Assembly: GCA_943354905.1 (NCBI GenBank)
Contig: CALRDL010000004.1
Span: 1 to 58,495, forward strand
Length of the DNA: 58,495 bases
Direction: 5' to 3'
DNA from: Candidatus Nomurabacteria bacterium
Lineage (GTDB): Bacteria > Patescibacteriota > Minisyncoccia > Phycocordibacterales > UBA9973
Position 1 is the first letter of the stretch. Every line of letters starts with the position of its first letter. Positions 10,029-46,816 of the stretch are shown here, in pieces. A program made the position numbers and the translations under genes. The notes beneath the pieces were generated by a model. That model was given only the letters and a program-made list of their open reading frames with translations. It ran no database searches and was not told where the DNA came from.

Positions 10029-11261
10029 ATGCAAAAATTTTCAAAAACAGGCCTGCCTGCGCAGGCAGGAAATATTCTCACTGTGATGCTATTGGTTGTT
10101 TTGGCTTTCTTTTCTGGTATGTATTTGAATAGAGACAACAGAACAGAGCTAGAAAAAGTTTCCTTAACCAATAAAGAAGTCACTGTGGCTACTGTCGCTG
10201 ATTTTGCTCCATTTTGGGAAGTTTGGAATAGTATAAATGAAAAATATCCGGAAGCTATAAAGACTACTGATCAAGAAAAAATCTATGGGGCTATCTCTGG
10301 GCTGGTAGGATCACTCGAAGATCCATATAGTGTTTTCTTCAGCCCAGAAGAAGCAAAAGAATTCGAGGAACAAATTTCTGGCAATTTCTCAGGTATCGGT
10401 ATAGAAGTCGGAATCAAAGATAAGGTTATGACTGTCATAGCACCACTCAAAAATACTCCTGCTTACAGGGCCGGCCTAAAATCTGGTGACAAGATTTTGC
10501 AAATCGACAAGAAAAATACTTCAGATGTAAGTATTGACCAAGCTATAAAGTTAATTCGCGGAGAAAAGGGTACGTTGATTACTTTGACTATTCTAAGAGA
10601 AGGGGACAAAGAACCTAAAGATATACCCATAATTAGAGACACCATAAATATTCCAACTTTAGATACAGAAATTCGAAATGACGGCATATTTGTTATAAAA
10701 CTCTATAGCTTCTCTGCAAATTCTCTGACTTTATTTCGTAACGCCTTGATAGAATTTTCAAAAGCCAGAACAGATAAATTGATCTTAGACCTGAGAGGTA
10801 ATCCGGGTGGATATTTACATGCTTCTGTTGATATAGCCAGCTGGTTCTTACCTTCAGGGAAGATAGTAGTCACTGAAGATTATGGAAAAAATAAAAATCC
10901 TGAGATTTTCCGAAGCAAGGGCTATGATGTCTTTAAAAGGAAATTAAAATTAGTTATTTTAATAGATGGTGGCTCAGCTTCTGCTTCAGAGATAGTTGCC
11001 GGCGCATTACAAGATCATGGCGTAGCAAAATTAGTCGGAGACAAGAGCTTTGGTAAAGGTTCTGTCCAAGAATTAATCAAAGTTACTGACGACACTCGCT
11101 TGAAAATAACTGTAGCCAAATGGCTTACTCCAAATGGGAATTCTATTTCTGAAAAAGGTCTAACTCCTGATTATGAAGTAAAACTAACTAGAAAAGATAT
11201 CGAGGAAAAGAAAGATTTACAATTAGAAAAAGCTGTGGATTTATTATTAAATTGGAAATAA
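10029..11261 (+). CDS. ctpA: C-terminal processing protease, S41 family
   Basis: GIG PDZ entry, [25 protein letters not shown]. Confidence 0.92.
10052..10069. repeat. 18-bp palindrome CCTGCCTGCGCAGGCAGG, in frame in ctpA
   Basis: Perfect palindrome encoding LPAQAG. Confidence 0.9.
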
Positions 11262-11268
11262 AAATAAG

Positions 11269-11712
11269 ATGAAAGTAATATTTTTAAAAGACGTACCAAA
11301 AGTAGGGAAGAAATACGACATCAAAGATGTGTCAGATGGCTACGCCATAAATTTCTTAATACCAAGAAGATTGGCGGAAATAGCTACCACTAAAATCGTA
11401 ACTGAAATAGAATTAAAACAAAAAGAAATAATTATAGAAAGAGAAATACAAGAAGATTTACTTTTGAAAAATCTAGAGGAAATAAAAAATAAAACTCTTC
11501 ATATGAAAGGCAAAACTGACGATAAAGGACATTTATTTTCTGGGATTCGCGCACGCGATATTGCCCTTGCAATGCAAATAGAATATAGAGCAACTATAGA
11601 AGAAGGTGCAATAAAACTGCTAAAACCCATCAAAGAAATAGGGGAGTTTGATATTCCGATCGAGATCCAAGGCAAAAAATCTTCGTTTAGGCTGGTGGTA
11701 GAAAAAATATAA
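11269..11712 (+). CDS. rplI: 50S ribosomal protein L9
   Basis: [12 protein letters not shown]....V.DGYA.NFLIP; PIKEIG. Confidence 0.95.
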
Positions 11713-11740
11713 AAAACTCTCAGATGAGAGTTTTTTATAT
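11707..11740. terminator. bidirectional intrinsic terminator between rplI and rpmA
   Basis: ATATAAAAAACTCTCA-GA-TGAGAGTTTTTTATAT inverted repeat between convergent genes. Confidence 0.75.
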
Positions 11741-12007
11741 TACATTTACTATCTTCCTAACTACTGTTTTTCCATTGAAGGAGATCTTGCGTTTTGAGCC
11801 AAATTTGACTGTACCGGGCTTGAGGGCGAAAAGAGTATGATCTTTGCCTAAACCGACGTTTATGCCTGCCATAATGGCTGTACCGCGTTGACGGACTATT
11901 ATAGATCCTGATTCTGCTCCTTGACCATGAGTAAGCTTAATACCTAGGTATTTTGGGTTCGAATCTCTTAAGTTTTTGGCGGTTCCGCCAGCTTTCCTAT
12001 GTGCCAT
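11735..12007 (-). CDS. rpmA: 50S ribosomal protein L27
   Basis: [14 protein letters not shown]...YLG.K; IIVRQRGT; GKDHTLFAL. Confidence 0.96.
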
Positions 12008-12094
12008 ATGATTGATTCTCTTGAGAAAAACGATTGATAAAAAAACTCGCTTTACGATCTATTTACTTATATAATATATAGTATACAAAATTCT

Positions 12095-12484
12095 ATGGGA
12101 AAAATCAAGCTATTTATAGAAAGTGAAAAGGGGAAAGATGTTTTGATCATTATTATAGTGATTTTAGTAGGTCTAGCTTCTTTTGAACTTGGTCGACTTT
12201 CTAGAGGCAAACAAAGTTCTGGTGTAAAGATAGAATATCCAAAGAAAGATGTCTATATGGAGGCAAATATTATTTCTGGAATAAATTCTTCTGAAAAAAA
12301 TCAAACTTCAAAATCAAATGCGATTTCTTCTAGTAAAAACTTTTTTGCTTCAAATAGGGGAAGTAAATATTATCCCGTAGGATGTTCCGGAGGTCAAAAC
12401 ATAAACCAAGAAAACAGAATTTATTTTAATACCAGTACTGAGGCCGAAAATGCTGGATATATATTATCAAGTTCGTGTAGATAA
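12095..12484 (+). CDS. membrane-anchored protein with Ada metal-binding-like C-terminal domain
   Basis: TM helix then FASNRGSKYYPVGC....I..ENRIYF....AENAGY....C. Confidence 0.6.
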   Translation: MGKIKLFIESEKGKDVLIIIIVILVGLASFELGRLSRGKQSSGVKIEYPKKDVYMEANIISGINSSEKNQTSKSNAISSSKNFFASNRGSKYYPVGCSGGQNINQENRIYFNTSTEAENAGYILSSSCR

Positions 12485-12506
12485 ATTTTACGAAAATGTA
12501 AGCGTT

Positions 12507-13466
12507 TTATTTTTTTAGTGGATGAAACTTTTTATGAGTAGATTCTGCAAACTTGTCCGAGGCGTGTACGTATCGAGAAGTGGTATCAAGTGATTCGTGA
12601 CCTAGAAGGATCTGAATGGCAGCAGGATTCGCCCCTTGTTCAGCTAAATAAGTCGCAAATCCATGTCTTAAGGAATGAGCACTGGTCGGAATATTGATAC
12701 CCAAAAGTTCTCTGTATTGTTTTATTTTCATTTGTAAATAGTTTGCCGAAATATGTTTATTTTTATTTGAGGCATTACGTCCACGATCAGGAATAAAAAG
12801 ATATGGAAAGTCGTCAGCTCTTTTCTTTAAGTAATTCTCAATGTGACGTTTTGCTCTTTCAGTAAGATAAATAAAACGCTGTTTCCTTCCTTTACCTTCA
12901 ATAAAAATTTTCCCTGATTTATCTAGTTGGATTTTTTTTAAATTAATCAATTCTGAAATACGCATTCCCGATGCGAACAATGTCTCGAGAATCGCACGAT
13001 TTCTAAGTGCGATCATCTGATTTTTTTCAAATTGAGTAGGGGATTCAATTAACTTCTTGAGCTCTTCGAGTTCTGAAACTTGAGGATGTTTTTTTCCCAT
13101 TCGTAATAATTTAATTGATTCGGGTGGAACTGGAACAGGATAGTCCATATCGATAAGATATGTCAGATAACGCCTCAAGGATGTTAAGGTTCGATTTATC
13201 GAGCCACTTGATAAATCTTTCTCAGCTTTTTTACCAGATGCAGTTCTGCGATCATTGGAGTTAAGATAAGCTTTATATTGTTCTATGGTTTTCTTACTAA
13301 TATTCTCAAAAGAGAAATTATTCATCTCATAAGTAAGAAAAAAAGCAAAGGTCTCCAAGTCACGTTCATAGTTGTATAAAGTTTCTTTTGAATAATTATT
13401 GGCACGAACAAAAAGCAGGAAGTCATCATGGTAGGTGAGTGCATTTTTATGATTATTATTGGTCAT
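12507..13466 (-). CDS. tyrosine recombinase XerC/XerD family
   Basis: SGMRISE, GKGRKQR, HSLRHGFAT, LLGH, TTSRY catalytic residues. Confidence 0.92.
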   Translation of the reverse strand: MTNNNHKNALTYHDDFLLFVRANNYSKETLYNYERDLETFAFFLTYEMNNFSFENISKKTIEQYKAYLNSNDRRTASGKKAEKDLSSGSINRTLTSLRRYLTYLIDMDYPVPVPPESIKLLRMGKKHPQVSELEELKKLIESPTQFEKNQMIALRNRAILETLFASGMRISELINLKKIQLDKSGKIFIEGKGRKQRFIYLTERAKRHIENYLKKRADDFPYLFIPDRGRNASNKNKHISANYLQMKIKQYRELLGINIPTSAHSLRHGFATYLAEQGANPAAIQILLGHESLDTTSRYVHASDKFAESTHKKFHPLKK

Positions 13467-13557
13467 ATTAAACTGAGTATAATATCTCTAACACTCATAT
13501 TATATACAAAAGACATTGTATAGTCAATAAATTGTACAGTGTTGGCCAATAGAACGA

Positions 13558-13758
13558 CTACTTCACGCTATTAAAGAGCTCCTTGAGCCAATCTAAGGCG
13601 ACTTTGATGTAGCCGAGGATGTCTGCCCAAGTCAAATTAAAATATTCTAGAGTTCCAGAGATAGTGATACCAAAATATCGCATCAATAGCAAAGCAACAA
13701 CGACAAGTATGATTAATTTTATAAAACCAGCTTCTTTTTTATTTTTATTTATCATCAT
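13558..13758 (-). CDS. small membrane hypothetical protein
   Basis: Basic N-terminus, GFIKLIIL hydrophobic helix; TGnTATGAT 6 nt upstream. Confidence 0.6.
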   Translation of the reverse strand: MMINKNKKEAGFIKLIILVVVALLLMRYFGITISGTLEYFNLTWADILGYIKVALDWLKELFNSVK

Positions 13759-13788
13759 ATTAATATCATAACATATTCTAATCTCAAA

Positions 13789-15108
13789 CTAAAGCAAAGG
13801 TATATATTTAGGTAAATAATACATTGGATCGAGATAAGCATTGATAGCTGCAACAGGTTGTTTTAAAATTTTGCCAGGGCAAGAGATGCTCGGCACTGTG
13901 GAGACATTTGCAGCAGTCGAAGCATATAGTGATACATGAAGATGAGGTCCTGTCACCCTTCCTGTGCCTCCAGTATAACCAACCACTTCCCCTCTTTGTA
14001 CTTTTTTACCTTCAGAAACCTTTATAAGTGATAAATGCGCAAACGTACTAGAAAGACCATTGCCGTATTCAATAAAAACCCATTTACCAAAAGATACACC
14101 AGAACAAATAACATCAGTATCTCCGATACCTTTGACTATTCCATCGGCCATAGATTTGACCGGTAATGGAGTTCTGGCACGAAAATCAGTCCCACCATGA
14201 CCACTCACATAAGTTCTGTGAGGTCCAGTTTTTGCTCCAAATTCTTGGGTCACAAAAACTTTATCAAGTGGCCAGCTGAGTACTCCCGCGCTAGGAAGCT
14301 CAGACGGATCGAGAATGAATTGCAATTCTGATTCAAGTTGATACAATTCTTTTTCAAAAATTAATTTCTTAGCTAATTGTTCTTTTACTAATTTTTGATA
14401 ACTCGCTTCACTATTTTTTGTTTGTTGAAGTAATTTACTTTTTTCATTTGCATTCTGTATACTTATTTTTTGCTGATCAGAAAGTTTTGATTTCAAAGCA
14501 AGTAATTCATTTTGTGCAATAATAGTAGTATCTCGAGTGTCCTCTAGTTGTCCTTTTACCTGCTTGAGTCTAATTATATTTTCACGCATCTTCTCGCGTA
14601 GAGTTATTATATTGTCTATCTCATTCCAAATAACCGAGAAATCATTATTAGATAAAATGGTTTCTACTATGGTAATTTGTTCAAATTCATTCGTTTTTCT
14701 AAATTCGAGTTTGATGGATTCAATATAGGTATCTATCACATTTTCTTTGTTAGAAATATCCGAACTTAAATTTCCTATGGCAAGATTCGTCTTGTCTATC
14801 TTTTTTTGAGTGATGAATATATCTGTCTGTAATTTTTTCTTAGTTAGGTCTAATTCTTTAATAGTATTATTCAAAGAATTTTTTTCCTTACCAAGACTTT
14901 CAAGTTGAGTTTGATACACTCTGATCTCGATTTCCAATTTTTCTATATCTGTATCTTTTTGATTTATTTTCTCTCTTATTTCATTTACTGTTTGTGCATA
15001 AGAAAAAAACATTGGCATTAAAACCAAAATTATAAAAAATCTTTTGAGTAAAAAAATTAGAATTTCATTCCATTTCAACTGCTTTTTGTAATCTTGAAAT
15101 TGTTTCAT
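13789..15108 (-). CDS. coiled-coil M23 peptidase (EnvC-like architecture)
   Basis: Long coiled coil, then HGGTD and TGPHLH zinc motifs. Confidence 0.88.
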   Translation of the reverse strand: MKQFQDYKKQLKWNEILIFLLKRFFIILVLMPMFFSYAQTVNEIREKINQKDTDIEKLEIEIRVYQTQLESLGKEKNSLNNTIKELDLTKKKLQTDIFITQKKIDKTNLAIGNLSSDISNKENVIDTYIESIKLEFRKTNEFEQITIVETILSNNDFSVIWNEIDNIITLREKMRENIIRLKQVKGQLEDTRDTTIIAQNELLALKSKLSDQQKISIQNANEKSKLLQQTKNSEASYQKLVKEQLAKKLIFEKELYQLESELQFILDPSELPSAGVLSWPLDKVFVTQEFGAKTGPHRTYVSGHGGTDFRARTPLPVKSMADGIVKGIGDTDVICSGVSFGKWVFIEYGNGLSSTFAHLSLIKVSEGKKVQRGEVVGYTGGTGRVTGPHLHVSLYASTAANVSTVPSISCPGKILKQPVAAINAYLDPMYYLPKYIPLL

Positions 15109-16399: not shown

Positions 16400-16447
16400 T
16401 TCTTGATTATAACATATAAATACAATGCTCTGAAACTTTTTTAAATA

Positions 16448-17154: not shown

Positions 17155-17157
17155 ATT

Positions 17158-22681: not shown

Positions 22682-23581
22682 CTACACATCATACAACACA
22701 TTCACAATCTTTTCCATATCTTGAAATCGTCCTTCGAAAGTAGAGCCGAGTAATGTTACAGCTATTTCTTCTCCTCTTTCATTCTTGAAAATAATCACCA
22801 GATTGCCTCCCGCGATTTCTGTGTACCCTGTTTTAGAAAATAAAAGATTTGGAATCTTGCCGATTAAAATATTTGTATTTTCAAAATTATGTTCGAATCC
22901 AGAAACGGAAGTTAGATTTATTTCTGGTAACGTCGTCACGCTAAATACTTCCGGACGAGCTTTCAGTGCATACATAGCCATAATATTTATGTCGAATGCT
23001 GTGCCAAAAGCACCTGCCTGCGCAGGCAGGCCTGCTTCTTCAAGACTTAGATCTAATCCAGTCGAATTTATGAATAAAGTATTCTCTGCACCGATCTTTT
23101 TTGCTTTCATATTTAATTTATTTACAAAATCTTCATCACCTTCCGCCAAAGCATATGCTCCATCATTTGCCGAAGCGATCAGTGTAAACCGCGCTATATC
23201 GTCTATGTTCCATTTTTCGTTTGCAAAAATTCCAAAATCCCCAGCTTGATCGATAGCTTCTGGTGACACAGAGATAATCTCGTCAACCTTATGTGTATTC
23301 AAACTTTGAGTGACAGTCAAAATCTTGGCCAGAGAGGCTATGGGAAATATCATCTCATCATTTTTCCCATATATTTTTTTATACTTATTTATATTGTAGA
23401 CAGAAACTGCCTTAGCTAAAATTGGTAAATTTTCAAGGGAAATTTTTATACTTTCTTCTCGTTCTTTTTCTAACCTAGAATATTCATTCAGTTTCATATT
23501 ACCAACAAAAAATAACCCCGCAGAAATGGCGATGATAAATAAAATAAAGAATAATAAATTATTGTACGTTCGTGTTTTCAT
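22682..23581 (-). CDS. D-alanyl-D-alanine carboxypeptidase, S11 family
   Basis: IASLAK (SxxK), SAND (SxN), KTG; TM anchor. Confidence 0.88.
   Translation of the reverse strand: MKTRTYNNLLFFILFIIAISAGLFFVGNMKLNEYSRLEKEREESIKISLENLPILAKAVSVYNINKYKKIYGKNDEMIFPIASLAKILTVTQSLNTHKVDEIISVSPEAIDQAGDFGIFANEKWNIDDIARFTLIASANDGAYALAEGDEDFVNKLNMKAKKIGAENTLFINSTGLDLSLEEAGLPAQAGAFGTAFDINIMAMYALKARPEVFSVTTLPEINLTSVSGFEHNFENTNILIGKIPNLLFSKTGYTEIAGGNLVIIFKNERGEEIAVTLLGSTFEGRFQDMEKIVNVLYDV
23013..23030. repeat. 18-bp palindrome CCTGCCTGCGCAGGCAGG, in frame in the carboxypeptidase
   Basis: Perfect copy encoding LPAQAG. Confidence 0.9.
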
Positions 23582-24125
23582 CGGCCATTTCGCTCGTCAT
23601 TTCTTTTGCTCCGACTTCCACCATTTTTTTTACTTCTTCATAATCTATTAATTCCTCTATACTCTTCACCCCCATAAAAGACAATAGTTCTAAAGTTGGT
23701 TTATAGATATATTTTCTACTATCTTTTGGATCGCTAGTTTTTTCCACTAACCCTCGGACCGAAAGCGCGCGTAAAGTAAAACTAGAATTTACTCCACGAA
23801 TATAATCTATCTCAGCCCGACTCACTCCAGACTTATATAAAACAATAGATAAAGTCTCCAAACTCGCTTTGGATAAATCTTTATTCAATTCTTCTTTTTG
23901 TAAATTTTCTATCAAAATCGAAAATTCTGGTGCTGTACCCATAGAAATTTGATCTTCTTTCTGTATCAAGACAACTCCTCGGCCAGATAAATTATTTTTT
24001 AAATTAGAAACAGCCTCAGTAATTTCTTCTTTTGAAACTTTCAAGATTTCTTCCAACTTTTTTAGAGTTACTGGTTCACCCTTAAAGAAAAGTATTACTT
24101 CGATTTTATTTTCTAAATTGTTCAT
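23559..24125 (-). CDS. scpB: SMC-Scp complex subunit ScpB
   Basis: IEVILF.KGEP, LSKASLETLSIVLY, SRAEIDYIRGVNS. Confidence 0.93.
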   Translation of the reverse strand: MNNLENKIEVILFFKGEPVTLKKLEEILKVSKEEITEAVSNLKNNLSGRGVVLIQKEDQISMGTAPEFSILIENLQKEELNKDLSKASLETLSIVLYKSGVSRAEIDYIRGVNSSFTLRALSVRGLVEKTSDPKDSRKYIYKPTLELLSFMGVKSIEELIDYEEVKKMVEVGAKEMTSEMADENTNVQ

Positions 24126-24895
24126 AAATTATTTTCCAAAGTTTTTTCTTCCTCTGTTTTGTGTAAAATTATATCGTCGGTACTTACCTCTTGCACCGCA
24201 TGAATTATTCCCTGCCTGACAAGCTCTAGCATAGCAAGAAATCCAACAATGACAAGTACTTTTTCGGCGCGGGTTGAGACCTTACCATGAAGATCTTTGA
24301 AGTTCATTGACATAGCGTTCCTAACTCGCTCAGTCAGTTTATCGATCATTTCTTCAATACTGATAACTTTTCTTACTTCTACTTCCGGCATGATAACTTT
24401 TTTTGGCATAGCTCCGAACACGTCTCGAGCAAAAGTCATCATTGAATCTTTGGTTATTCGATCGTCGGGTAAGAAAACCAACACATCACTTTTTCGTTCA
24501 AGAGGAGCAAATATTATATTTTTACCAAAATTATTTTTTACATTTATTCCAAGTTTTGCATATATGTCATATAGACGCAATCGGTCTTCTAGATTCTTTA
24601 TATCTCCTTCTTCTTCGAGGGTCATATCGAGATTTGGTAAAAGGGATTTAGATTTAATTAAAATCAAAGTCGAAGCTACGTATATAAAACTAGAAATCTC
24701 ACTTGGGTGTAAATTCCCTGCCTGCGCAGGCAAGCCTGCCTGATTTATATAATTCAAATAGTCTTCAGTAACTTCAGCCAAAGATACGTCATTGATAAAG
24801 AGTTTCCTTTTTTCAATGAGATCGAGTAGTAAACCGAAAGGCCCCTCAAAAGAAGCGGTTCTTATATTAAAAGCCTGATTATTTTGGGTTTCCAC
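24122..24895 (-). CDS. scpA: segregation and condensation protein ScpA
   Basis: FEGPFGLLLDLI, LILIKSKSLLP, FLAMLELVRQG. Confidence 0.93.
   Translation of the reverse strand: METQNNQAFNIRTASFEGPFGLLLDLIEKRKLFINDVSLAEVTEDYLNYINQAGLPAQAGNLHPSEISSFIYVASTLILIKSKSLLPNLDMTLEEEGDIKNLEDRLRLYDIYAKLGINVKNNFGKNIIFAPLERKSDVLVFLPDDRITKDSMMTFARDVFGAMPKKVIMPEVEVRKVISIEEMIDKLTERVRNAMSMNFKDLHGKVSTRAEKVLVIVGFLAMLELVRQGIIHAVQEVSTDDIILHKTEEEKTLENNL
24717..24734. repeat. 18-bp palindrome copy (1 mismatch), in frame in scpA
   Basis: CCTGCCTGCGCAGGCAAG; encodes LPAQAG on the minus strand. Confidence 0.85.
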
Positions 24896-25148: not shown

Positions 25149-26708
25149 CAATTTGCAAAAATTTCTTACGACGAAAAATCTGAGACAGCTACTTTTACTT
25201 TTCCTAAAAATATTCCTGCAACAAAACCAAAAGAAAAAATAAAACTAACTCTTGCTTTCAAGGGAATTTTGAACGACAAAATGCGAGGATTTTATAAAAG
25301 TTCATATCAAATAGATGGCAAAGAACATCATATGGCTACAACTCAATTCGAAGCCACCGACGCTCGTCGAGCTTTTCCATGTTTTGACGAACCCGCCCAT
25401 AAGGCCGTCTTCTACGTCTCGCTTATAGTTCCAAAAGGTAAAACAGCGATTTCAAATACTTTGCCAGTTTCTGTCGCTGAACACGAGAGTGGTTTTGAAA
25501 TAATTAAATTCGCCCCGACACCGAAAATGTCGACTTATCTCCTCGCCTTCATTGTCGGAGATTTTGAATATTTAGAAAAAAAATCAAGTCGTGGTGTACT
25601 AGTACGAGTCTACACAACTCCCGGCAAAAAACATCAAGCCAAATTTGCTCTCGATGTCACGGTAAAAGTTTTAGAATTTTATGAAAAATATTTTGACATC
25701 CCCTATCCTCTCGACACTCTCGACATGATAGCAATACCTGACTTCTCTTCTCTAGCTATGGAAAATTGGGGAGCTATTACTTTTCGAGAAGTAGGATTAT
25801 TAGTAGATGAAAAAAATACTTCACTTAGTTCTAAAGAACTAATCGTAGAAGTCATAGCTCATGAACTCGCCCACCAATGGTTTGGAAACCTGGTCACTAT
25901 GGAATGGTGGACACACCTCTGGCTCAATGAGGGCTTCGCTTCTTATATTCCATATTTAGTTGTAGAAAAATTATTTCCAAAATGGAATATATGGGAAAGG
26001 TTTACTACAGACACCCTTGGTGTCGCTCTCCAGCTCGATTCTCTAAAAAATACTCATCCCATAGAAGTCGAAGTCCATCACCCAGATGAAATCGGAGAAA
26101 TTTTTGATGCAGTTTCATATTCCAAAGGTGCTTCCATCATACGAATGCTCGCAGAATATTTAGGAGAAAAAGATTTCCGCGATGGGTTGCGTTATTATCT
26201 GAAAAAACATAGTTATAAAAATACTAGCACTATTCACCTCTGGGAAGCTTTTGAAAAAATATCAAAAAAGAAAGTGTCGAAAATGATGCACAATTGGACG
26301 AGTAAGCCAGGATACCCTGTCGTGCACGCAGAAATGATAAATGGGGAAATAAATTTCTCTCAAAGTAGATTTTTCGTCAGCCCCATCTCAGCTCAAAAAT
26401 CTAAAGACAATACCAAATGGGAAATTCCGATAATTTATAAAAACAACAAAGTAAATTTTGGTGAGACGGGATTCTATAGGACAGCCTATTCAAAAGAGTT
26501 ACTAGAAAAACTTCGTGAGCCTATACAAAAAAAAGAATTGGGTGCGAGTGATAGACTCGGAGTAATTCGCGATCTCTTTGCTCTATCAGAATCTGGGATA
26601 ATACCGACAACGGACTCATTAGAATTTCTTTCAAACTATAAAAAAGAAGATAATTACACTGTTTGGGTAGAGATAATAAATGGACTTTCACATTTAGACC
26701 AGCTCCTC

Positions 26709-26733
26709 TACCCCGAAGACTTTCTTCGGGGTA
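26709..26733. repeat. hairpin TACCCCGAAGA-CTT-TCTTCGGGGTA in the aminopeptidase gene
   Basis: Perfect 11-bp stem; related copy at 42949..42970. Confidence 0.75.
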
Positions 26734-27515
26734 ATTTAGATAAATTAGTTATTGATTTATTCTCTCCTACTTTCCACAGATTAGGTTGGAATAACATTAA
26801 AAATGAAAATCATACCGATGCACTGCTCCGCTCTCTCGTTATAAAAATGCTCGGAAAATCTGGTCATAAAGAAATGATACTAGAAGCAAAAAAACAATTT
26901 CAAAAAATGAATACAGGAACGCATATTGATCCAGATATTCGTGGAGCTATGTATTCTATCATCACTACTCATGGCGGAATGAAAGATTATAAAATTTTAA
27001 TTAAAAAATATATTGAGGAACATTTACATGAAGAAAAAAATCGGATTGGAAATTCTCTCGGAAATTTCCAAAATCCACAAATTCTAAAACTTGTTTGCGA
27101 ATTCGCTATGTCTAAAAATGTCCGAGCCCAAGATGCAGTCGGAATTCTCTCCTCTGTCGGAGCCAATCCTCTCGGCCGAGATATCTGGTGGAGTTTCATC
27201 ACCCAAAATTGGAAGACTCTCGTCTCGCGTTACGGCGAAGGCGGACTGACCTTAAGCAGGGTCGTGAAAGCCATATCTGGTAGCGCCGAAGAACACCACT
27301 TCAAAGAATTCAAGAAGTTCTTCTCTACCCACAAAGCTCCAGGTGCCAAACGCGCCATAGACCAAGTCTTGGAACGTCTCGAAGGCAACAATGCTTGGAG
27401 GAAAAGAGACCATAGAAATATAGCTAATTTCCTCAAAAACCTCGAAAAGTAATCTACTTATCCAGACCCCTTTTGTTTACTTTACTTGACTAAAATATAT
27501 TTTACATTAAATATT

Positions 27516-31848: not shown

Positions 31849-32205
31849 TTATATTTTACTCGCACCTACTTTCGCCGCGAGGATAAAATCATTTTCAGAT
31901 AGGCCGCCGATGGCGTGGGTGGAGAGAACGAGCTCAACTTTGTTGTAATGAATCTGAATATCGGGATGATGACCTTCTTGTTCAGCAATATCAGCCACAA
32001 GATTTACAAAATTTATCGCTCCGATAAAATCAGAGAATTTAAATTCTTTGGAAATCTTTTTCGCATCCGCATCTAGTATCCAGCCACCTGCCTGCGCAGG
32101 CAGGCTGACTTCATCTAAATAATCTTGCGCATCTTCTCTCGACAAGGGTTTTATTCCCTTGCCTTCGCAAGCAATACATACTTTTTTTAATAAATCATAA
32201 GACAT
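31849..32205 (-). CDS. phhB: pterin-4-alpha-carbinolamine dehydratase
   Basis: F.F.DF, AEQEGHHPD, STHAIGGLSENDFILAAK; TATAAT 6 nt before ATG 32205. Confidence 0.93.
   Translation of the reverse strand: MSYDLLKKVCIACEGKGIKPLSREDAQDYLDEVSLPAQAGGWILDADAKKISKEFKFSDFIGAINFVNLVADIAEQEGHHPDIQIHYNKVELVLSTHAIGGLSENDFILAAKVGASKI
32087..32104. repeat. 18-bp palindrome CCTGCCTGCGCAGGCAGG, in frame in phhB
   Basis: Perfect copy encoding LPAQAG. Confidence 0.9.
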
Positions 32206-32219
32206 ATTTTTATTATACA

Positions 32220-32936
32220 CTACTTTAACCATTTATCGACTATTTTTTCTAATTGATCTAAGCTATCAAGGACAAAAAGCTTCTTGTGAAATTTATGGGC
32301 ACTGCGATTTATTTTACCAACCATATCAGCATCGTAGGGTAATTTTTCTACTTTTTCAGATAAAGCATTATTTAATTCCCCTTCTGAAGAAATGAGTCCT
32401 GTTCCTAAAACTTTTATCTTGCCTTTCACTTTTAAGAAAGAAAACTCAATCCCATACCACCAGTTATTTGCAATTTTCAATTTATCTTTTTTTGTTTTAG
32501 CTTTTACATACGCCAAGCCAAACTTTTGTACGATTCGAGCATATTTTTTATTCGCTAAAAATGGCAAATGTCCGAAAACATCATGAAAAACATCTGGGAG
32601 TGGCGTATATTCTAAATTTTTCTTTGAACGAATATATTCAGTAACTCGGATTTTTCTTTCAGCTAAACTAGAAATCCACGGACCATCTTCTTCGTATTGG
32701 ACACCAGTGCTTGCAACCTGAAAACCAGTTAGACTTTTTAATTTTATATTGATGGCACGAAAGTTCGGTATAGATCTAGCACTCAACCCTAAAAGTTTCC
32801 AGCCTTGCTTGTGCATAGGATGTGCATAGTTTTTTAAACTTTTTATTCTTCTACCAGCCAAGATACTCCAAACTTCGTGTTCTCTGTTTCGAAACTTTCT
32901 AAAAATACTTTTATTTTTTCTATTTTTTAAGTTCAT
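32220..32936 (-). CDS. phhA: phenylalanine 4-hydroxylase-like enzyme
   Basis: YIR....EYTPLPDVFHDVFGHLPFL, WYGIEF, G.GLISS.GEL; adjacent to phhB. Confidence 0.88.
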   Translation of the reverse strand: MNLKNRKNKSIFRKFRNREHEVWSILAGRRIKSLKNYAHPMHKQGWKLLGLSARSIPNFRAINIKLKSLTGFQVASTGVQYEEDGPWISSLAERKIRVTEYIRSKKNLEYTPLPDVFHDVFGHLPFLANKKYARIVQKFGLAYVKAKTKKDKLKIANNWWYGIEFSFLKVKGKIKVLGTGLISSEGELNNALSEKVEKLPYDADMVGKINRSAHKFHKKLFVLDSLDQLEKIVDKWLK

Positions 32937-39116: not shown

Positions 39117-39413
39117 TTATTTTCCGAACTTTTTTAGCATTTGGTGAAATCCACCATCCTTATTTCGAAGCATTCGAGATCCGCGCGTGACAGTACTGAT
39201 GCCCAGACCCAAATCCCCTGCTACAGATCTATGAGTCTCTTTGTTATTTAATTTCTTTATTATTTGCCAACGCAATGCCAAATTTTCAATCTCATTTGGA
39301 GTAAACATATCTTTTAGAAAAAGTGCGATAAAATCTTTATCTGAATTTAATTTGGAAAAAACTTCTAATAATTCTTTTTTATATTCCGAAATTTTTTTAT
39401 TTATGTGTTTCAT
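39117..39413 (-). CDS. trpR: Trp repressor family protein
   Basis: FL.D.FTPNE......RWQIIK.L, R.VA.DLG.GISTVTRGSR.L; near trpS. Confidence 0.85.
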   Translation of the reverse strand: MKHINKKISEYKKELLEVFSKLNSDKDFIALFLKDMFTPNEIENLALRWQIIKKLNNKETHRSVAGDLGLGISTVTRGSRMLRNKDGGFHQMLKKFGK

Positions 39414-39443
39414 ATTAAAGTATAATGTATTTGGAATAAATCA

Positions 39444-39959: not shown

Positions 39960-40005
39960 TTTTAATCAACAAATTCAACACAAACAATGTGTGGATAAAC
40001 ATATT

Positions 40006-40956: not shown

Positions 40957-41056
40957 ATTTATATATTATCATAATAAATTTTTATATCCACACATTACCC
41001 ACATCATTACACACTTTTTAACTTTTCTAAAATTTTGACTGTGCTAGAATAACTGA

Positions 41057-42460
41057 ATGGTAAAGAATATAAAAAGTTTCAAATCTGCAAATATTCGCAT
41101 TCCTCCACAAAGCATACCCTCCGAACAAGCGGTCTTGGGTTCTATTATGCTCCGCAAAGATGCTATGCACGAAGTCGAAGACATGGTAACTCCGGATTCT
41201 TTTTATGTAGAAAAACATAAAATAATTTTTCAAGCGATGCTCGACCTTGGAAATAAAAATGAACCGATAGATATGCTTTCTCTTTCTACGAAACTTGGAG
41301 AAAGAAAACTTTTAGAACAAATCGGAGGCAATCAATACTTGGCAGAGATAGTAAATACTGTCCCTTCGAGTACAAACGTAAAACACTATGCAGATATTGT
41401 TCAAAAAAAATATGTCTTGCGTGGACTAATCGAAGCGGCTGATTATATTTCCGAACTTGCTTTCGAGGAAGGCGATGACCATATGGATGACATTCTCGAC
41501 ATGGCCGAGAAGAAAGTTTTTAGCGTAGTCTCTTCTCCAAAGAATCAAAAATTTGTAAATTTAAAAGATGCTCTACCTGAAGCCTATGAAAGACTAGAGA
41601 AACTTCATGAAAATAAAGGTATGATCCGCGGACTACCGACTGGTTTTCGAGATTTGGACACTATGCTTTCTGGTTTACAAAATTCTGATTTAATAATTCT
41701 GGCAGCTCGTCCATCTATGGGTAAAACCACTCTGGCTTTAGATATAGCTCGTATGGCTGGAGTAAAACATGAGAAATCTATTTTAATATTTTCCCTAGAA
41801 ATGTCTTCTCAACAACTCGTAGACCGTATGCTCTCTGCTGAGAGTCGAGTTAATGCTTGGAATCTCCGCACTGGGAACCTTTCTTCGGATCGAGAATTTT
41901 CTCAACTTCGCGATTCTCTCGGTAAACTCGCCAAAGCAAAAATCTACATAGATGATACTCCTGGAAATTCTATAGTTCGTATGAAAGCTTTGGCTCGTAG
42001 AATAAAAGCTGAGAAATCTTTAGATTTGATCGTCGTCGACTATTTACAATTAATGACGACTTCTAAAAATTATGATTCGATGGTGAATCAAGTTACTGAA
42101 ATCTCTAGATCTTTAAAAGGTCTCGCCAAAGAACTCGATGTACCCGTCCTTGCCCTTTCCCAGCTCTCTCGTAATGTTGAATCTCGTGGTGGCAAACCTC
42201 GCCTGTCTGACCTCCGTGACTCTGGATCTATCGAACAAGATGCCGACGTGGTTATGTTCATCCATAGTGAAGATAAAGGAAAAGAAGAATCTGATAAAAC
42301 AAATATAGTTGAAATATTGATCGAAAAACACCGAAATGGACCGACTGGAAAAGTCGAACTTTATTTTGATCTCAAAACTACGACCTTTCTTAATCTTGAA
42401 AAAAGTAATTTGAGTGAATTTTCCGCAGCGAAGGTAAGTAGTGACTTAGATGAGTTCTAA
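41057..42460 (+). CDS. dnaB: replicative DNA helicase
   Basis: AARPSMGKT, FSLEM, VDYLQL, LSQLSR, DLRDSGSIEQDAD, KHRNGPTG. Confidence 0.97.
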   Translation: MVKNIKSFKSANIRIPPQSIPSEQAVLGSIMLRKDAMHEVEDMVTPDSFYVEKHKIIFQAMLDLGNKNEPIDMLSLSTKLGERKLLEQIGGNQYLAEIVNTVPSSTNVKHYADIVQKKYVLRGLIEAADYISELAFEEGDDHMDDILDMAEKKVFSVVSSPKNQKFVNLKDALPEAYERLEKLHENKGMIRGLPTGFRDLDTMLSGLQNSDLIILAARPSMGKTTLALDIARMAGVKHEKSILIFSLEMSSQQLVDRMLSAESRVNAWNLRTGNLSSDREFSQLRDSLGKLAKAKIYIDDTPGNSIVRMKALARRIKAEKSLDLIVVDYLQLMTTSKNYDSMVNQVTEISRSLKGLAKELDVPVLALSQLSRNVESRGGKPRLSDLRDSGSIEQDADVVMFIHSEDKGKEESDKTNIVEILIEKHRNGPTGKVELYFDLKTTTFLNLEKSNLSEFSAAKVSSDLDEF

Positions 42461-42463
42461 AAT

Positions 42464-42529
42464 GAATTACGAATTAAAAATTAGGAATTACGAATTGGGA
42501 TTAAAATTGATAATTCGTAATTTGAAATT
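42464..42529. repeat. heptamer tandem repeats with inverted counterpart
   Basis: GAATTAC GAATTAA AAATTAG GAATTAC GAATTGG ... AATTCGT AATTTGA AATT. Confidence 0.55.
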
Positions 42530-42543
42530 AATAATTGAATACA

Positions 42544-43170
42544 ATGGATATAATAGATAAATTATCTGAAGTTTTTAAAGAATTCCCTGGGATAGGAGAA
42601 AGACAAGCTAAGCGTTTTGTTTATTTTTTAATGTCTAAAAACGGAAGTTATGCAGAAAATTTGTCTCTGCTTATTTCTGATTTAAAAAAAGAAGTAGCAC
42701 AATGTGGAGAATGTTTTAGATTTTTCATTGTGAAAAATGGTAAAAATAATCTATGTGATATTTGTGCCAATACAAATACAGACACCTCTACTCTCATGGT
42801 CGTTGAGAAAGATTCTGATTTAGAGTCAGTTAAAAAAAGTCGAGTTTATAATGGGAAATATTTTGTTTTGGGTGGGCTCGTACCAATCGTCGAGAAAACT
42901 ACAAAAAGTCGAGTCCGGATTGAAGAATTAAAAAAGAAAATAGGATCTCCCCAGAAGAAAGTCTTCGGGGAATTATGTGAAATTATTCTCGCCTTCTCAC
43001 TCAACCCTCAAGGCAACCACACAGACGAGTACGTTCGTGAACAATTAAATGATTTAGCTCAAAAAAATAATATAAAAATATCTTCTCTTGGTCGTGGCCT
43101 CTCCACCGGCACCGAACTCGAATATTCTGACAACGAAACTTTAAAAAATGCGCTGAAGAATAGACAATAA
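42544..43170 (+). CDS. recR: recombination protein RecR
   Basis: PGIG.RQA.R, CxxC...CxxC, VVEK..D, YFVLGG, GTELEYSD..TL..AL..R. Confidence 0.93.
   Translation: MDIIDKLSEVFKEFPGIGERQAKRFVYFLMSKNGSYAENLSLLISDLKKEVAQCGECFRFFIVKNGKNNLCDICANTNTDTSTLMVVEKDSDLESVKKSRVYNGKYFVLGGLVPIVEKTTKSRVRIEELKKKIGSPQKKVFGELCEIILAFSLNPQGNHTDEYVREQLNDLAQKNNIKISSLGRGLSTGTELEYSDNETLKNALKNRQ
42949..42970. repeat. hairpin CCCCAGAAGAAAGTCTTCGGGG inside recR
   Basis: Reverse-complement of the 26711..26731 element with one extra A. Confidence 0.7.
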
Positions 43171-43213
43171 AAAAAACCTTTGGGTTTGTGGTTTTGTATG
43201 TTACAATACTTGC

Positions 43214-43609
43214 ATGGATCAGGATGCAATTGTTAAATACTGGATAGATGCTTCTGAGGGTGATTTTGAATTATCACAAAATCTTTTTGAAAATAAAAGA
43301 TTTTCTTACTGCCTTTTCTTTGTTCATCTTTCTATTGAAAAATTATTGAAGGGCATAATTGTCAACAAAACATCAAACTCTGCCCCTTATGAACACAATC
43401 TTGTTCGTTTAGCTGAAGCAACAGGTATTAAATATTCAGAGGAACAGCTCGATATGCTGGCAGATATCACAACTTTCAATATCAAAGCTCGATATGATGA
43501 TTACAAAAATCAGTTTTATAAAATAGCCACTGAAGAATATACAAAAAAGTATTTATTACAAGCTGAAGAATTTATATTATGGTTAAAAAGATACTTGGAG
43601 AAGATATAA
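43214..43609 (+). CDS. HEPN domain protein (putative toxin)
   Basis: YW...SE.D...A/S, F..H...EK.LK, HNL..L, ARY. Confidence 0.88.
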   Translation: MDQDAIVKYWIDASEGDFELSQNLFENKRFSYCLFFVHLSIEKLLKGIIVNKTSNSAPYEHNLVRLAEATGIKYSEEQLDMLADITTFNIKARYDDYKNQFYKIATEEYTKKYLLQAEEFILWLKRYLEKI

Positions 43610-43902
43610 TAAGATTGACTAAATCATTTAGATCGTCACTTGAAAATGATAACATTGAAATTGATTCAATGATTGTTTTTGGTTCTCAGGCAAAAGGAAA
43701 TTCTCGACCAGGAAGTGATATAGACATTTGTGTGGTATCACCTTCTTTTGGAAGTAATGATACCGAAGAAATGCAGATGTTATTTAAAAAAGCTAGACGC
43801 ATTGATTCACGAATTGAGCCTTACCCAATGAACCCAAAAAACTTATCAGAAACTAATAATCCGATAGTTGGCGAAATTCTGCGATGGGGCGTGCTTGTAT
43901 AA
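43579..43902 (+). CDS. minimal nucleotidyltransferase (putative antitoxin)
   Basis: VFGSQAKG....GSDIDICVVS; overlaps the HEPN gene. Confidence 0.88.
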   Translation: MVKKILGEDIIRLTKSFRSSLENDNIEIDSMIVFGSQAKGNSRPGSDIDICVVSPSFGSNDTEEMQMLFKKARRIDSRIEPYPMNPKNLSETNNPIVGEILRWGVLV

Positions 43903-43914
43903 ATCTCTGCACCG

Positions 43915-43941
43915 TCTCCATCAGCACCGAACTCGAATATT
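43915..43941 (+). repeat. 27-bp direct repeat of a recR 3' segment (43100..43126)
   Basis: TCTCCATCAGCACCGAACTCGAATATT vs TCTCCACCGGCACCGAACTCGAATATT, 2 mismatches. Confidence 0.8.
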
Positions 43942-43980
43942 ATTTTTTTTCTTCTACTTATAGGATCTTCTTCCATCTTT

Positions 43981-44334
43981 TTATTTTATAGAAATTATCT
44001 TCACTTGAAAGAAAGGCTGACGGTGGCCGTTGCGTTTTAGGTAACGAGATTTTTGTTTGTATTTTACTACGAGGATTTTTCGAGCACGGCCAATCTCTAC
44101 TATTTCCGCATCTACTTTTGCGCCTGTGATGTATGGTGTACCTATAGTCGTATCTTTGCCATCATCTACCAAGAGAACTTTATCAAAAGAAATTTTGTCG
44201 CCTTTTTTGTATTCAACTCCTTTAGTGTTTATTTTTTCAATAGAAACAAAGCTCCCCGCGGAAACCTTGTATTGTTTTCCACCTGTATTTATAACTGCAA
44301 ATTCAGATTTGTCTGCCTTTTTCTCTTTTTTCAT
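43981..44334 (-). CDS. rplU: 50S ribosomal protein L21
   Basis: FAVINTGGKQYKV, IGTPYI.GAKV, GHRQPF; ATG 44334 preferred. Confidence 0.95.
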   Translation of the reverse strand: MKKEKKADKSEFAVINTGGKQYKVSAGSFVSIEKINTKGVEYKKGDKISFDKVLLVDDGKDTTIGTPYITGAKVDAEIVEIGRARKILVVKYKQKSRYLKRNGHRQPFFQVKIISIK

Positions 44335-44394
44335 ATTAAGTCTTATATTATATGATATTTCACAAAAAAGCAAATATTTGCTACAATTAACCCC

Positions 44395-45405
44395 ATGCAA
44401 ACAAAAATTATAGAAAAGTACTTTTTCTTTGGTCTATTACTAGCCACTTTTATCTTTACTTTTTTTATCTTTCGTCCATTTTGGATAGTTCTAGTCCTTG
44501 GTGTTTCTTTTGCAATAATTCTGCATCCGTTACATCTCTGGCTTAATAAAAAATACATACCAAATTGGATTTCGGCTTTTTTGACTGTTTGTATTTTTAC
44601 TATCGTTTTATGCGGTCCTATTCTAGGAACAGGAATACTTATCTTTAAACAAAGTCAAAATGTCTATAATTCTGTAGTAAGCGATGGAAATACAGAACCA
44701 ATTTTGGCGACAATAGGAAATTCCATCAATCAATTTCTTCCAGAAGGAATTGATTTTGATATAAACAAAAAAACAACTGATTTTATCTCGTATATCTCTA
44801 GTAACATTGCCAACATATTCAGTACCACAGTCTCGGCATTTTTCTCTTTCATCTTAATGCTTTTAATTATTTTTTATTTCTTGAAAGATGGAGAAAAATG
44901 GAAAAATTCTCTGGTTATTTTTAGCCCACTTGAAGATAAAGATGACCACAAGATAATCAGCGGACTCGACAATGCCGTAAATGCCGTAATAAAAGGTTCT
45001 TTATTTATTGCTTTTGTCCAAGGAACGCTCATGGGTTTTGGTCTCTGGCTTTTTAATGTTCCAAATCCCGCACTCTGGGGGCTGGTCGCCGCTGTCTGTT
45101 CCCTGCTTCCCACTATCGGTACAGCGATGGTCTCTATACCAGCTATCATTTTCCTATTTTTTAAAGGAGACACTACTTCAGCTATAGGTCTCTTGTTCTG
45201 GGCATTTTTGTTGGTAGGCATGATCGACAATTTCTTGAGCCCCATGATCGTAGGAAAAAAAACAAATATCTCTCCGCTTCTAGTTTTGTTTTCAGTCTTG
45301 GGAGGAATTTCTTTCCTTGGGCCTGTCGGTATCCTAATCGGTCCACTTTCAGTAAGTTTACTCTATACCCTCTTTCTCATTTACCGCAATGAATTCCGAC
45401 AATAA
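44395..45405 (+). CDS. AI-2E family transporter
   Basis: FYFLKDG, QG.L.G.G, LLPTIG, DNFL.P, GG...LG..G..IGP. Confidence 0.9.
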   Translation: MQTKIIEKYFFFGLLLATFIFTFFIFRPFWIVLVLGVSFAIILHPLHLWLNKKYIPNWISAFLTVCIFTIVLCGPILGTGILIFKQSQNVYNSVVSDGNTEPILATIGNSINQFLPEGIDFDINKKTTDFISYISSNIANIFSTTVSAFFSFILMLLIIFYFLKDGEKWKNSLVIFSPLEDKDDHKIISGLDNAVNAVIKGSLFIAFVQGTLMGFGLWLFNVPNPALWGLVAAVCSLLPTIGTAMVSIPAIIFLFFKGDTTSAIGLLFWAFLLVGMIDNFLSPMIVGKKTNISPLLVLFSVLGGISFLGPVGILIGPLSVSLLYTLFLIYRNEFRQ

Positions 45406-46816
45406 AAATCATAAAAAAATATATTTTTTTAACACTCTCACTCGGAAAAAGGAAGAGTTTATTCCTATTGATCCAAATGAAATAAAAATGTATTCTTGTG
45501 GCCCGACGGTAAACAATTATGCTCATATAGGCAATCTGCGTGCCTATGTTTTTGCTGACATCCTTCAAAAAACTTTAGAATATTCTAGTTATGAAGTAAA
45601 ACGAGTTATGAATATAACTGATATCGGAATTCTCTCGAGTGATGCAGACACAGGGGAAGACAAGATGACTGCTGCCCTAGTGCGGGAAGGAAAAGAATTG
45701 ACCCTAAAAAATATGCGTGAACTCGCCGAGTTTTATACAGAAAAATTTAAAGAAGACTTGGTTAAACTAAATATAACTATACCCAGCAACATATATTTCG
45801 CGAGTGATTATATCAAAGAAGATGTAGAACTCGTACGAAAGTTAGAAGAAAAGGGATTTACATATACCACATCTGATGGTATTTATTTTGATACTTCTAA
45901 GGTGTCAGACTATGGAGCACTTACCGGAGGGAAAACTATTCGAGATGAGAGTCATATTCGAATTGCAGAAAATAAAGAAAAGAAAAATGGCGAAGACTTT
46001 GCCTTATGGAAATTTAATAAAGAATTAGGATACGAATCTCCTTGGGGTCGTGGTTTTCCCGGCTGGCATATAGAATGTTCAGCTATAGGTTTAAAATTTC
46101 TTGGAGAACAATTTGATATTCACACAGGAGGAATAGATCTCATTCCTACTCACCATACAAATGAGATAGCTCAGTCAGAAAGTGCTACAAGTAAAAAACC
46201 TTTTGTAAAATTTTGGCTACATAGCGACCACATCGATGTCGGTGGATTAAAAATGGCGAAATCTACAGGAAATTTTTTGAAACTTGAAAGCATTGTGAAT
46301 AAAAATATAAATCCTCTTGCTTATCGTTTTTGGCTCTTGATGGGTCATTATCGTACCAAATTAAATTTTAATTGGGACGCCCTAGAAGCATCAGAAACAG
46401 GTCTAAAAAGGATACAAAATATATATTTGGGGCTTGGGAAGGATGTGGGCCTGCCTGCGCAGTCAGGAAATATAAGTCAAAAATATAAAGAAAAATTCCA
46501 AGAATTCTTAAATAATGATCTCGACACTCCAAAAGCTCTCACAGTATTATGGGATTTAATGAAAGACGAAAATATTTCACCTCCCGACAAAAAAGCTACA
46601 GTGCTGGATTTTGACAAAGTGCTTGGACTCGGTTTTATTGATTTAAAAGAAGAAAAAATTGATGTTCAGGAAGAAGTCTTGAAATTAGTAGAAAAACGCA
46701 AAGATGCTCGTGATAATAAAGATTTTACAAAATCTGACGAACTAAGAAAACAAATAAATTCTTTTGGTTACGACGTTAAAGATACTTCAGAGGGACAAAA
46801 GATTTCTAAGATTTAA
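45389..46816 (+). CDS. cysS: cysteine--tRNA ligase
   Basis: CGPTV...HIGN, DFALWK, SPWGRG.PGWHIECS, HTGG.DL...HH.NE, KMAKS. Confidence 0.96.
   Translation: MNSDNKNHKKIYFFNTLTRKKEEFIPIDPNEIKMYSCGPTVNNYAHIGNLRAYVFADILQKTLEYSSYEVKRVMNITDIGILSSDADTGEDKMTAALVREGKELTLKNMRELAEFYTEKFKEDLVKLNITIPSNIYFASDYIKEDVELVRKLEEKGFTYTTSDGIYFDTSKVSDYGALTGGKTIRDESHIRIAENKEKKNGEDFALWKFNKELGYESPWGRGFPGWHIECSAIGLKFLGEQFDIHTGGIDLIPTHHTNEIAQSESATSKKPFVKFWLHSDHIDVGGLKMAKSTGNFLKLESIVNKNINPLAYRFWLLMGHYRTKLNFNWDALEASETGLKRIQNIYLGLGKDVGLPAQSGNISQKYKEKFQEFLNNDLDTPKALTVLWDLMKDENISPPDKKATVLDFDKVLGLGFIDLKEEKIDVQEEVLKLVEKRKDARDNKDFTKSDELRKQINSFGYDVKDTSEGQKISKI
46450..46467. repeat. 18-bp palindrome copy (1 mismatch), in frame in cysS
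   Basis: CCTGCCTGCGCAGTCAGG encoding LPAQSG. Confidence 0.85.

Follow-up and report, generated by a model that had tools for sequence, protein, structure and literature searches.

Here we describe an 18-bp perfect palindrome, CCTGCCTGCGCAGGCAGG (hereafter P18), that lies in frame in five unrelated genes within a 58,495-nucleotide (nt) stretch of DNA from Candidatus Nomurabacteria bacterium (assembly GCA_943354905.1, contig CALRDL010000004.1, positions 1 to 58,495; contig C4 of the 31-contig assembly). This whole stretch is referred to below as the window. P18 is probably a non-autonomous, miniature mobile hairpin element resembling the repetitive extragenic palindromes (REPs) of other bacteria. 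A preliminary description of the same DNA, made from its letters alone, had proposed a very short selfish element with a target preference, and this is supported in substance, although no cognate transposase was found. That P18 is inserted rather than ancestral is indicated by empty sites in orthologs, by copies nested in copies, and by a patchy distribution with lineage-specific bursts.

P18 copies and the inserted unit

The window is A+T-rich (32–36% G+C), and a search allowing up to two mismatches recovered exactly five P18 matches in it, compared with none in each of 100 dinucleotide-preserving shuffles. The five positions given in the preliminary description were confirmed, three as exact copies and two with a single mismatch, and all five fall in long open reading frames (ORFs) with clear Pfam identities. 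The first copy, exact and on the forward strand (10052..10069), lies in an ORF (10029..11261) for a CtpA-like S41 C-terminal processing peptidase with a PDZ domain, where it encodes residues 9–14 (LPAQAG), within the first 14 residues and on the N-terminal side of a hydrophobic segment. Three copies follow on the reverse strand: an exact one (23013..23030) in the ORF for an S11 D-Ala-D-Ala carboxypeptidase (dacA, 22682..23581, residues 185–190), one with a single mismatch (24717..24734) in that for ScpA (24122..24895, residues 55–60), and an exact one (32087..32104) in that for pterin-4a-carbinolamine dehydratase (PhhB, 31849..32232, residues 44–49). The fifth, with one mismatch and again on the forward strand (46450..46467), is in the ORF for CysS, the class I cysteinyl-tRNA synthetase (45389..46816, residues 355–360). 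The scpA mismatch changes CTG to TTG on the gene strand and is synonymous for leucine; that in cysS changes GCA to TCA, giving LPAQSG in place of the LPAQAG read at the other four sites. As had been claimed, the copies share a single codon phase, each beginning at codon position 3 of the gene strand, and are preceded by GG (four of five) or AG (one of five). The only RNA family found by Rfam in the window was a tRNA.

The genome as a whole (750,840 bp, 35.7% G+C, Nomurabacteria-like, 96% complete by marker genes) contains 29 copies at up to three mismatches: 15 exact, six with one, seven with two and one with three. For DNA of this length and G+C content, 15 exact copies are not attributable to chance. 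Reading frames were tallied for the 21 copies at up to one mismatch, with genes called by a longest-ORF heuristic (stop-to-stop ORFs of at least 150 aa) rather than by a gene finder. Seventeen of the 21 fall in such ORFs and four in short or no ORFs; given that these ORFs occupy 82.5% of the genome, there is no bias for or against genes. The earlier statement that no copy is intergenic holds for the window but not for the genome, where the copy at C7:830 (contig:position) is clearly intergenic and that at C17:9875 probably so. Similarly, the 17 genic copies read LPAQAG in 12 cases, PACAGR in four and CLRRQ in one (one-phase excess, p = 0.0019), so that the constant reading first described is a property of the window, and not of the element. 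Among the matches listed from other genomes, all 83 copies divide by phase into 52, 18 and 13, and those in ORFs of at least 150 aa at loci below 50% G+C into 44, 11 and 3, the LPAQAG phase thus accounting for 44 of 58 genic copies (p = 4e-11). Two exact copies, C29:1870 and C29:2797, lie 927 bp apart in one 357-aa ORF, both in the PACAGR phase; this ORF resembles a tRNA-dihydrouridine synthase, by eye only.

This recurrence of one reading would also be expected if the peptide were the unit, LPAQAG being a functional motif gained convergently. We regard this as highly improbable. The copies are identical at synonymous positions while the variants are mostly non-synonymous (LPAQSG, LPTQAG, LSAQAG, LPAQTG), and the host proteins are unrelated and reside in different cell compartments. 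Because other phases and intergenic copies exist, the prevailing LPAQAG reading is a survivorship filter and not a rule.

P18 has the structure (CCTG)2-CG-(CAGG)2, i.e. two abutted 9-nt arms, and as single-stranded DNA (ssDNA) forms a 7-bp stem with a GCGC loop (−6.5 kcal/mol). It is six codons long, all of its phases are free of stop codons and, being perfectly palindromic, it is the same on both strands; its insertion therefore never breaks a reading frame. Ortholog alignments contain a clean six-residue gap at each of the five window sites, which bears out the earlier suggestion that removing the 18 nt leaves a plausible frame, and the sites are empty in every same-genus ortholog set. The six residues are absent from all same-genus orthologs of CtpA (0 of 29), ScpA (0 of 29) and PhhB (0 of 25), and LPAQAG is absent from those of DacA (0 of 18), five of which have other extra residues at that loop. 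Nor was the insert found in any same-genus CysS ortholog (0 of 29), a tally that takes in one unpublished genome (G076), on which no claim is based.

In a wider set of CysS orthologs, 93 of 94 lack the insert, and a single sequence (L059) carries a related one, GQPAQSG, at this very position. A quick maximum-likelihood tree places L059 as the sister of L082 and L065 (support 99) and not of this genome, and identity is not raised in the 50 residues around the site. Since L059 is not a sister lineage and there is no local rise in identity, we read its insert as an apparent second, independent event at the same site; common descent or recombination, considered for the shared T variant (LPAQSG), was rejected on these grounds. 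The same CysS loop holds other, unrelated G+C-rich palindromic inserts in three relatives (L015, L017, L025), e.g. TCCGCCGGCCGGCGGA. The insert of L015 is a 16-nt perfect palindrome, and another insert is a 12-residue hairpin within a hairpin. The CysS loop is a recurrent landing site.

The proposal that the inserts add peptide loops agrees with AlphaFold models of PhhB and CysS made on ortholog alignments. Residues 44–49 of PhhB are predicted to form a coil between a helix (32–42) and the following strand, and the 10-residue block with the insert has a mean predicted local distance difference test (pLDDT) score of 70, compared with 94 and 95 in the neighbouring blocks. Residues 355–360 of CysS are placed in a loop (348–363) between two helices, with pLDDT below 50 at 354–358.

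Copies of P18 nested in one another were found at three loci. Bases 11 and 12 of P18 are separated by an 18-nt variant at C11:8520 and at C22:2304, and at C13:15196 the outer copy, itself a P18 variant, has another variant at its precise midpoint. In all three nests the outer parts together make up exactly 18 nt, without a duplicated base; the inserted unit is thus the 18-mer itself, without target-site duplication. The regions C11:8500-8560 and C22:2285-2345 contain the same nested 36-nt arrangement, in opposite orientation to their genes and with a common 5-nt flank, GATTT, and this composite may itself be a mobile unit. Rfam returned no RNA family at the non-coding and nested copies, and a conserved-RNA origin of P18 is unsupported.

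Distribution across genomes

Within the genus, 10 of 24 genomes carry one to three copies (up to one mismatch) and 14 carry none. These copies are at sites other than those of the present genome, and one site is common to two relatives. Two of 16 genomes belonging to further families in the order have P18. Of 400 additional genomes sampled across the phylum, 13 have it and 387 do not; six of the carriers have 3–20 copies, among them G115 (20), G140 (11), G309 (10), G363 (7) and G399 (4), the bursts being of 7–20. A scan of one genome per species across Bacteria and Archaea found P18 in at least 119 stretches. Among the matches listed (80), most are from Patescibacteria of many named lineages, and a few from Bacteroidota and others; some of the non-Patescibacteria matches are in G+C-rich genomes, where a chance match is likelier. 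By record title, the lineages with exact copies among the matches listed include WWE3 and Woese-, Gottesman-, Beckwith-, Shapiro-, Dojka-, Kaiser-, Yonath-, Uhr-, Zambryski- and Wildermuthbacteria. Copies that agree to the letter, a patchy presence and bursts in particular lineages are the pattern of a horizontally moving element.

A palindromic, G+C-rich oligomer in an A+T-rich assembly might also be suspected of having come from an adapter, a linker or some other artefact of library preparation or assembly, but we give this almost no credence. The inserts are always a multiple of three, lie inside conserved loops and include diverged variants, and they recur in more than 100 stretches from the assemblies of many projects, almost all of them Patescibacteria. 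Moreover, the scpA copy, the only one so covered, is bridged without a gap by a contig assembled from the run of a different sample (X2, record 14), and the reversed pattern, used as a control, gave no match in 41 genomes or in 401 genomes.

The exact agreement of the 18-mer between very distant lineages of Patescibacteria would also suit a selected DNA signal, e.g. a competence uptake sequence or the binding site of a conserved protein, which selection would keep identical and which transformation and recombination, not transposition, would spread. Patescibacteria are known for their dependence on DNA uptake, and uptake sequences in other bacteria have preferred reading frames inside genes. 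Yet we find such a role distinctly improbable, as 387 of the 400 phylum genomes and 14 of the 24 same-genus genomes do without P18 and most carriers have one to three copies, when uptake sequences occur roughly once per kb. The copies, in addition, arise as whole 18-nt insertions, also inside one another, and not by point mutation, and their sites are not conserved between species.

Among viral contigs, P18 was found in 25 stretches, most of them above 58% G+C and often as part of longer intergenic hairpins; no ORF resembling a REP-associated tyrosine transposase (RAYT) was found in these 25, so that the viral matches are uninformative on a phage vector. In Bacteroidota, exact copies occur in L214, L253 (Saprospiraceae metagenome-assembled genome, MAG), L265 (Litoribacter ruber) and L222, L243, L281 and L287 (Sphingobacteriales MAG). 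They are apparently outside genes, with ACACGGNA recurring before the copy or with P18 as the core of a longer palindrome, and may represent an unrelated repeat or a sign of transfer.

Flanks and the mode of movement

Flanking sequences were pooled from 121 copies, comprising 21 from this genome and 100 exact copies elsewhere (among the matches listed), at loci below 50% G+C. GG adjoins P18 on 16% of flanks against a background of 3.6%, and GA on 13% against 6.3%. The flank matches the 3′ end of P18 over at least 2 nt, i.e. GG or a longer match to ...CAGG, in 37 of 121 copies (31%, with 7% expected) and over at least 4 nt in six (0.28% expected, an approximately 18-fold enrichment); the match is one-sided in 35 copies and on both sides in two. 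Within the window it is likewise one-sided, extending over 8 nt in scpA, where the upstream bases (CAGGCAGG) are identical to the P18 3′ end, over 5 nt in dacA, where P18 directly follows a native GCAGG, its own last five bases, and over 4 nt in ctpA. An end-tag test gave a purine as the adjoining base in 78% of cases as its sole flank signal; the GTAG/CGTC tag was absent as a signal within 8 nt of the end (GTAG 9, CTAC 2, GACG 2 and CGTC 0, n = 121).

The target preference claimed from the window was therefore recovered in this larger pool. GG flanks 27 of 75 genic copies and 8 of 36 likely non-coding ones, and its frequency at the latter too makes it a property of insertion and not only of protein-level selection. 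A rule of insertion after GG predicts the LPAQAG phase in 39–49% of cases, whereas 71–76% are observed, so that selection on the peptide after insertion is needed as well.

These observations can be combined in a model in which P18 would be copied into new sites without target-site duplication, preferentially at sites whose last bases are GG or match its 3′ end over a longer stretch (CAGG, GCAGG). As more than 80% of the genome is coding, most insertions would fall in genes, and selection would keep those copies that lie in surface loops able to tolerate them and that encode the flexible LPAQAG rather than PACAGR or CLRRQ.

What moves it is a more tentative matter. The preliminary description saw no mobilising enzyme, and indeed no transposase lies within the window, but elsewhere the genome encodes nine RAYT-like ORFs of the Y1 transposase family, none of them tied to P18. 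From this genome context, the lack of target duplication and a flank resembling the P18 3′ end, we infer, with some hesitation, that P18 may move as an ssDNA hairpin handled in trans by an HUH/Y1 transposase (RAYT or IS200-like). Were one hairpin to serve as both transposon ends, an expectation drawn from IS608 and ISDra2, the cleavage site in the flank would resemble the 3′ end of P18.

The same one-sided microhomology (8 nt in scpA, 5 nt in dacA, 4 nt in ctpA) and the 18-fold enrichment of matches of at least 4 nt could also arise if P18 were copied without a dedicated enzyme, by template switching during replication or by microhomology-mediated repair. A nascent 3′ end in GG or CAGG would copy a P18 elsewhere and return through pairing of its new ...CAGG end; in a variant of this route, a free, self-annealed P18 duplex would be captured at a break. 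The absence of target duplication suits such copying, as does the failure to find a cognate transposase, one genome (G140) having 11 copies without a Y1 transposase match, and the scpA region, CAGGCAGG-CTTGCCTGC-GCAGGCAGG, is inverted-triplication-like. However, this route gives no reason for the same 18 nt with exact ends to recur at hundreds of loci in many lineages, about two thirds of copies have a microhomology of 0–1 nt, and a local origin is excluded where the flank lacks CAGG (cysS, phhB). We thus judge enzyme-independent copying unlikely.

Several observations nevertheless count against P18 as a transposase-borne mobile hairpin. The nine RAYT-like genes here all lack P18, both beside and inside them, and 40 RAYT-like loci from relatives and from genomes with many P18 copies have no copy within 200 nt. 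A pattern of P18 followed at 40–70 nt by the coding motif YHxY[NS]RG had no match in species-level genome and metagenome contigs, even though this motif is present in 46 of 70 RAYT-like ORFs and the same pattern design recovers a sister 21-mer family (see below) at a gap of 63–64 nt; patterns placing P18 near the HUH coding motif also gave none. G140, with its 11 copies, has no PF01797 match at an estimated completeness of 100%, and RAYT counts do not track P18 counts (G003 has 11 RAYT and no P18, G013 no RAYT and one P18). P18 itself is unlike the RAYT-linked hairpins in being a loop-less perfect palindrome, richer in G+C and far more widely distributed. The target rule is loose, with a GG flank in only about a third of copies and a GG or longer ...CAGG match absent in about two thirds. 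Neutral decay can hardly account for an 18-mer that is identical across the phylum, and ongoing transfer or constraint is needed. Finally, low-depth run contigs contained no empty-site allele or excision product, although such contigs are uninformative on presence/absence polymorphism and cannot reveal rare variants.

RAYT-like ORFs do lie within 8 kb of P18 at five of the loci from the survey of the genus and order and from the species-level scan, but this was rejected as linkage, being about what genomic density would lead one to expect (a rough estimate). At another locus (L360, G015:C3, 1223-1242), a P18 stem with a 4-nt loop, CCTGCCTG-CCGA-CAGGCAGG, lies approximately 100 nt upstream of a RAYT-like gene flanked by different hairpins of its own.

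Among known systems, P18 fits best with the REP-like or RPE-like intragenic palindromes, RPE denoting the Rickettsia palindromic elements, and is a variant of these types. RAYTs are the Y1 transposases linked to REPs, as described by Ton-Hoang et al. (2012; PMC3333891). In Di Nocera et al. (2013; PMC3733652), REPs are given as 20–40 nt long with a GTAG or CGTC tag at one end, intragenic REPs are reported from several species, and Rickettsia RPE-4 and RPE-6 are classed as CGTC-type REPs. P18 shares with this system a short G+C-rich palindrome repeated in a genome that encodes RAYT-type HUH/Y1 transposases, and its sister families, but not P18 itself, flank RAYT-like genes in inverted orientation (C7, C12:1261, C25, C6 and C19). 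It differs in its 18-nt length, below the REP range cited in that source, in being loop-less and untagged, and in having no P18-flanked RAYT gene among the loci and contigs searched. It is also mostly intragenic (17 of 21 in ORFs of at least 150 aa) where REPs are extragenic, and the nine RAYT-like proteins of this genome (about 225–240 aa) fall below the NCBIfam cut-off.

The classic case is that of the RPEs, which, as characterized in the review PMC10969869, are about 100–150 bp long and lie in frame in many Rickettsia genes, where they encode conserved peptides of tens of residues. Like P18, they are palindromic repeats in frame in unrelated functional genes of a small-genome bacterium, encoding peptide segments that the structure tolerates. 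They are much larger than the 18 bp and six residues of P18; they belong to another phylum and have no sequence relation to it, and P18 is accompanied by many RAYT-like genes.

P18 departs from a miniature inverted-repeat transposable element of a DDE transposon: it lacks a target-site duplication, and the whole element is two abutted 9-nt arms. Elements of the IS200/IS605 group (IS608, ISDra2) move by single-strand 'peel and paste', with distinct left and right ends and a strict 4–5-nt target. They share with P18 the hairpin DNA, the lack of target duplication and an insertion site beside a short sequence, which for P18 is only a loose preference for GG/CAGG. P18 consists of one hairpin, and no TnpB-type gene (PF07282) was found in the genome. 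The mobile G+C clusters and double-hairpin elements of fungal mitochondria are likewise short G+C-rich palindromes in A+T-rich, compact genomes, sometimes in coding sequence. We know of no enzyme for these clusters and of no demonstration that they are associated with HUH transposases; unlike P18 they are organellar and longer (about 30–50 bp or more). A literature search, incomplete in coverage and with supplementary files outside its reach, found no description of such elements in Patescibacteria. P18 is unusual in its size, perfect symmetry, spread across Patescibacteria and lack of a linked transposase, and its host genome carries a remarkable load of RAYT-like genes and codon-compatible hairpins.

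A bolder proposal, which we advance with reservations, is that P18 may be the smallest mobile DNA unit described: 18 bp and one hairpin, without a gene or a target duplication, transferred horizontally across Patescibacteria, its enzyme encoded elsewhere or no dedicated transposase being involved. It would then be the most visible member of an 'intragenic REP' ecosystem, in which RAYT-like transposases with codon-compatible hairpins write loops into proteins, those of their own genes included. If P18 and its sister hairpins are mobile, they would be a direct and ongoing source of short in-frame insertions in essential proteins (CysS, ScpA, cell-wall enzymes), and mobile DNA would be one mechanism behind the numerous lineage-specific loop insertions in the proteomes of ultra-small bacteria. 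The lower size limit of a transposable unit would then be that of P18, which would also represent a minimal substrate for hairpin-directed ssDNA insertion. In practical terms, such inserts disturb alignments and marker-gene phylogenies and break short-read contigs, but they can be used as strain markers in metagenomes. Nine RAYT-like paralogues with hairpins of their own in a 0.75-Mb genome offer a natural panel for studying how HUH enzymes recognize hairpins.

Sister palindromes and their RAYT-like genes

The preliminary description had suggested searching the genome for TnpA-REP or IS200-like Y1 transposases, and this search yielded the nine RAYT-like ORFs, all matching PF01797 (Y1_Tnp), six of them above the cut-off, and 223–241 aa long. 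All are outside the window, at C3:62322-62993, C12:10424-11122, C1:37558-38232, C25:4900-5586, C2:15975-16649, C19:2069-2752, C7:10959-11654, C12:1261-1959 and C6:16719-17444. When aligned, they carry the HUH motif (NHFH) and a Y..NP motif, and their best NCBIfam match is NF047646, 'REP-associated tyrosine transposase', at 35–48 bits against a cut-off of 80. A sequence search of the PDB with one of these proteins gave no match at E ≤ 0.01. Y1_Tnp matches, 1–11 per genome, are present in 22 of 24 same-genus genomes, many of them bracketed by hairpins of their own.

Most of the nine genes here are also bracketed by their own hairpin. A census found at least eight further palindrome families of 19–25 nt with 5–16 copies each, and several of these flank their own RAYT-like gene at both ends in inverted orientation and also sit inside it in frame. 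The hairpins concerned are CCACAAGTCSGACTTGTGG at the C7 gene, CCACATGTCNGACATGTGG at C12:1261, CCCCGAAGAAAGTCTTCGGGG at the C6 gene and AGATAGGGGCTWAGCCCCTATCT at the C19 gene, and a two-copy hairpin brackets the C25 gene. The in-frame copies within coding sequence are at C7:11231, C12:1545, C6:16997 and C19:2259. Three related paralogues have the internal hairpin, read as HKSDLW, HMSDMW and PEESLRG, in one and the same loop immediately following the HUH motif, and such internal hairpins may reflect self-invasion or a functional internal site.

Sister families, too, occur in frame in unrelated genes, with preferred readings VRQDLT, HMSDMW and PEESLRG/PKKVFG. The window holds two copies of the C6 family, which flanks and invades the RAYT-like gene at C6:16719-17444. 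One (TACCCCGAAGACTTTCTTCGGGGTA; 26709..26733, forward strand) is in frame in the ORF 25269..27452, where it reads YPEDFLRG, and as ssDNA folds with −11.1 kcal/mol (z = −5.8). The other, a degenerate copy of CCCCGAAGAAAGTCTTCGGGG with three mismatches (42950-42970), is in frame in the ORF 42535..43170.

The 21-mer GCGTTAGGCAAGACCTAACGC has 16 copies in this genome at up to three mismatches and no adjoining RAYT gene here, whereas in other Nomurabacteria-like genomes it flanks nine of 13 RAYT-like ORFs on both sides. It follows that the transposase of a hairpin family that appears to be an 'orphan' in one genome can lie in others. Lastly, four 42-nt perfect palindromes (C2:2734, C2:3339, C14:19244 and C19:7989) consist of two hairpin families placed head to head, and may be composite or dimeric elements.

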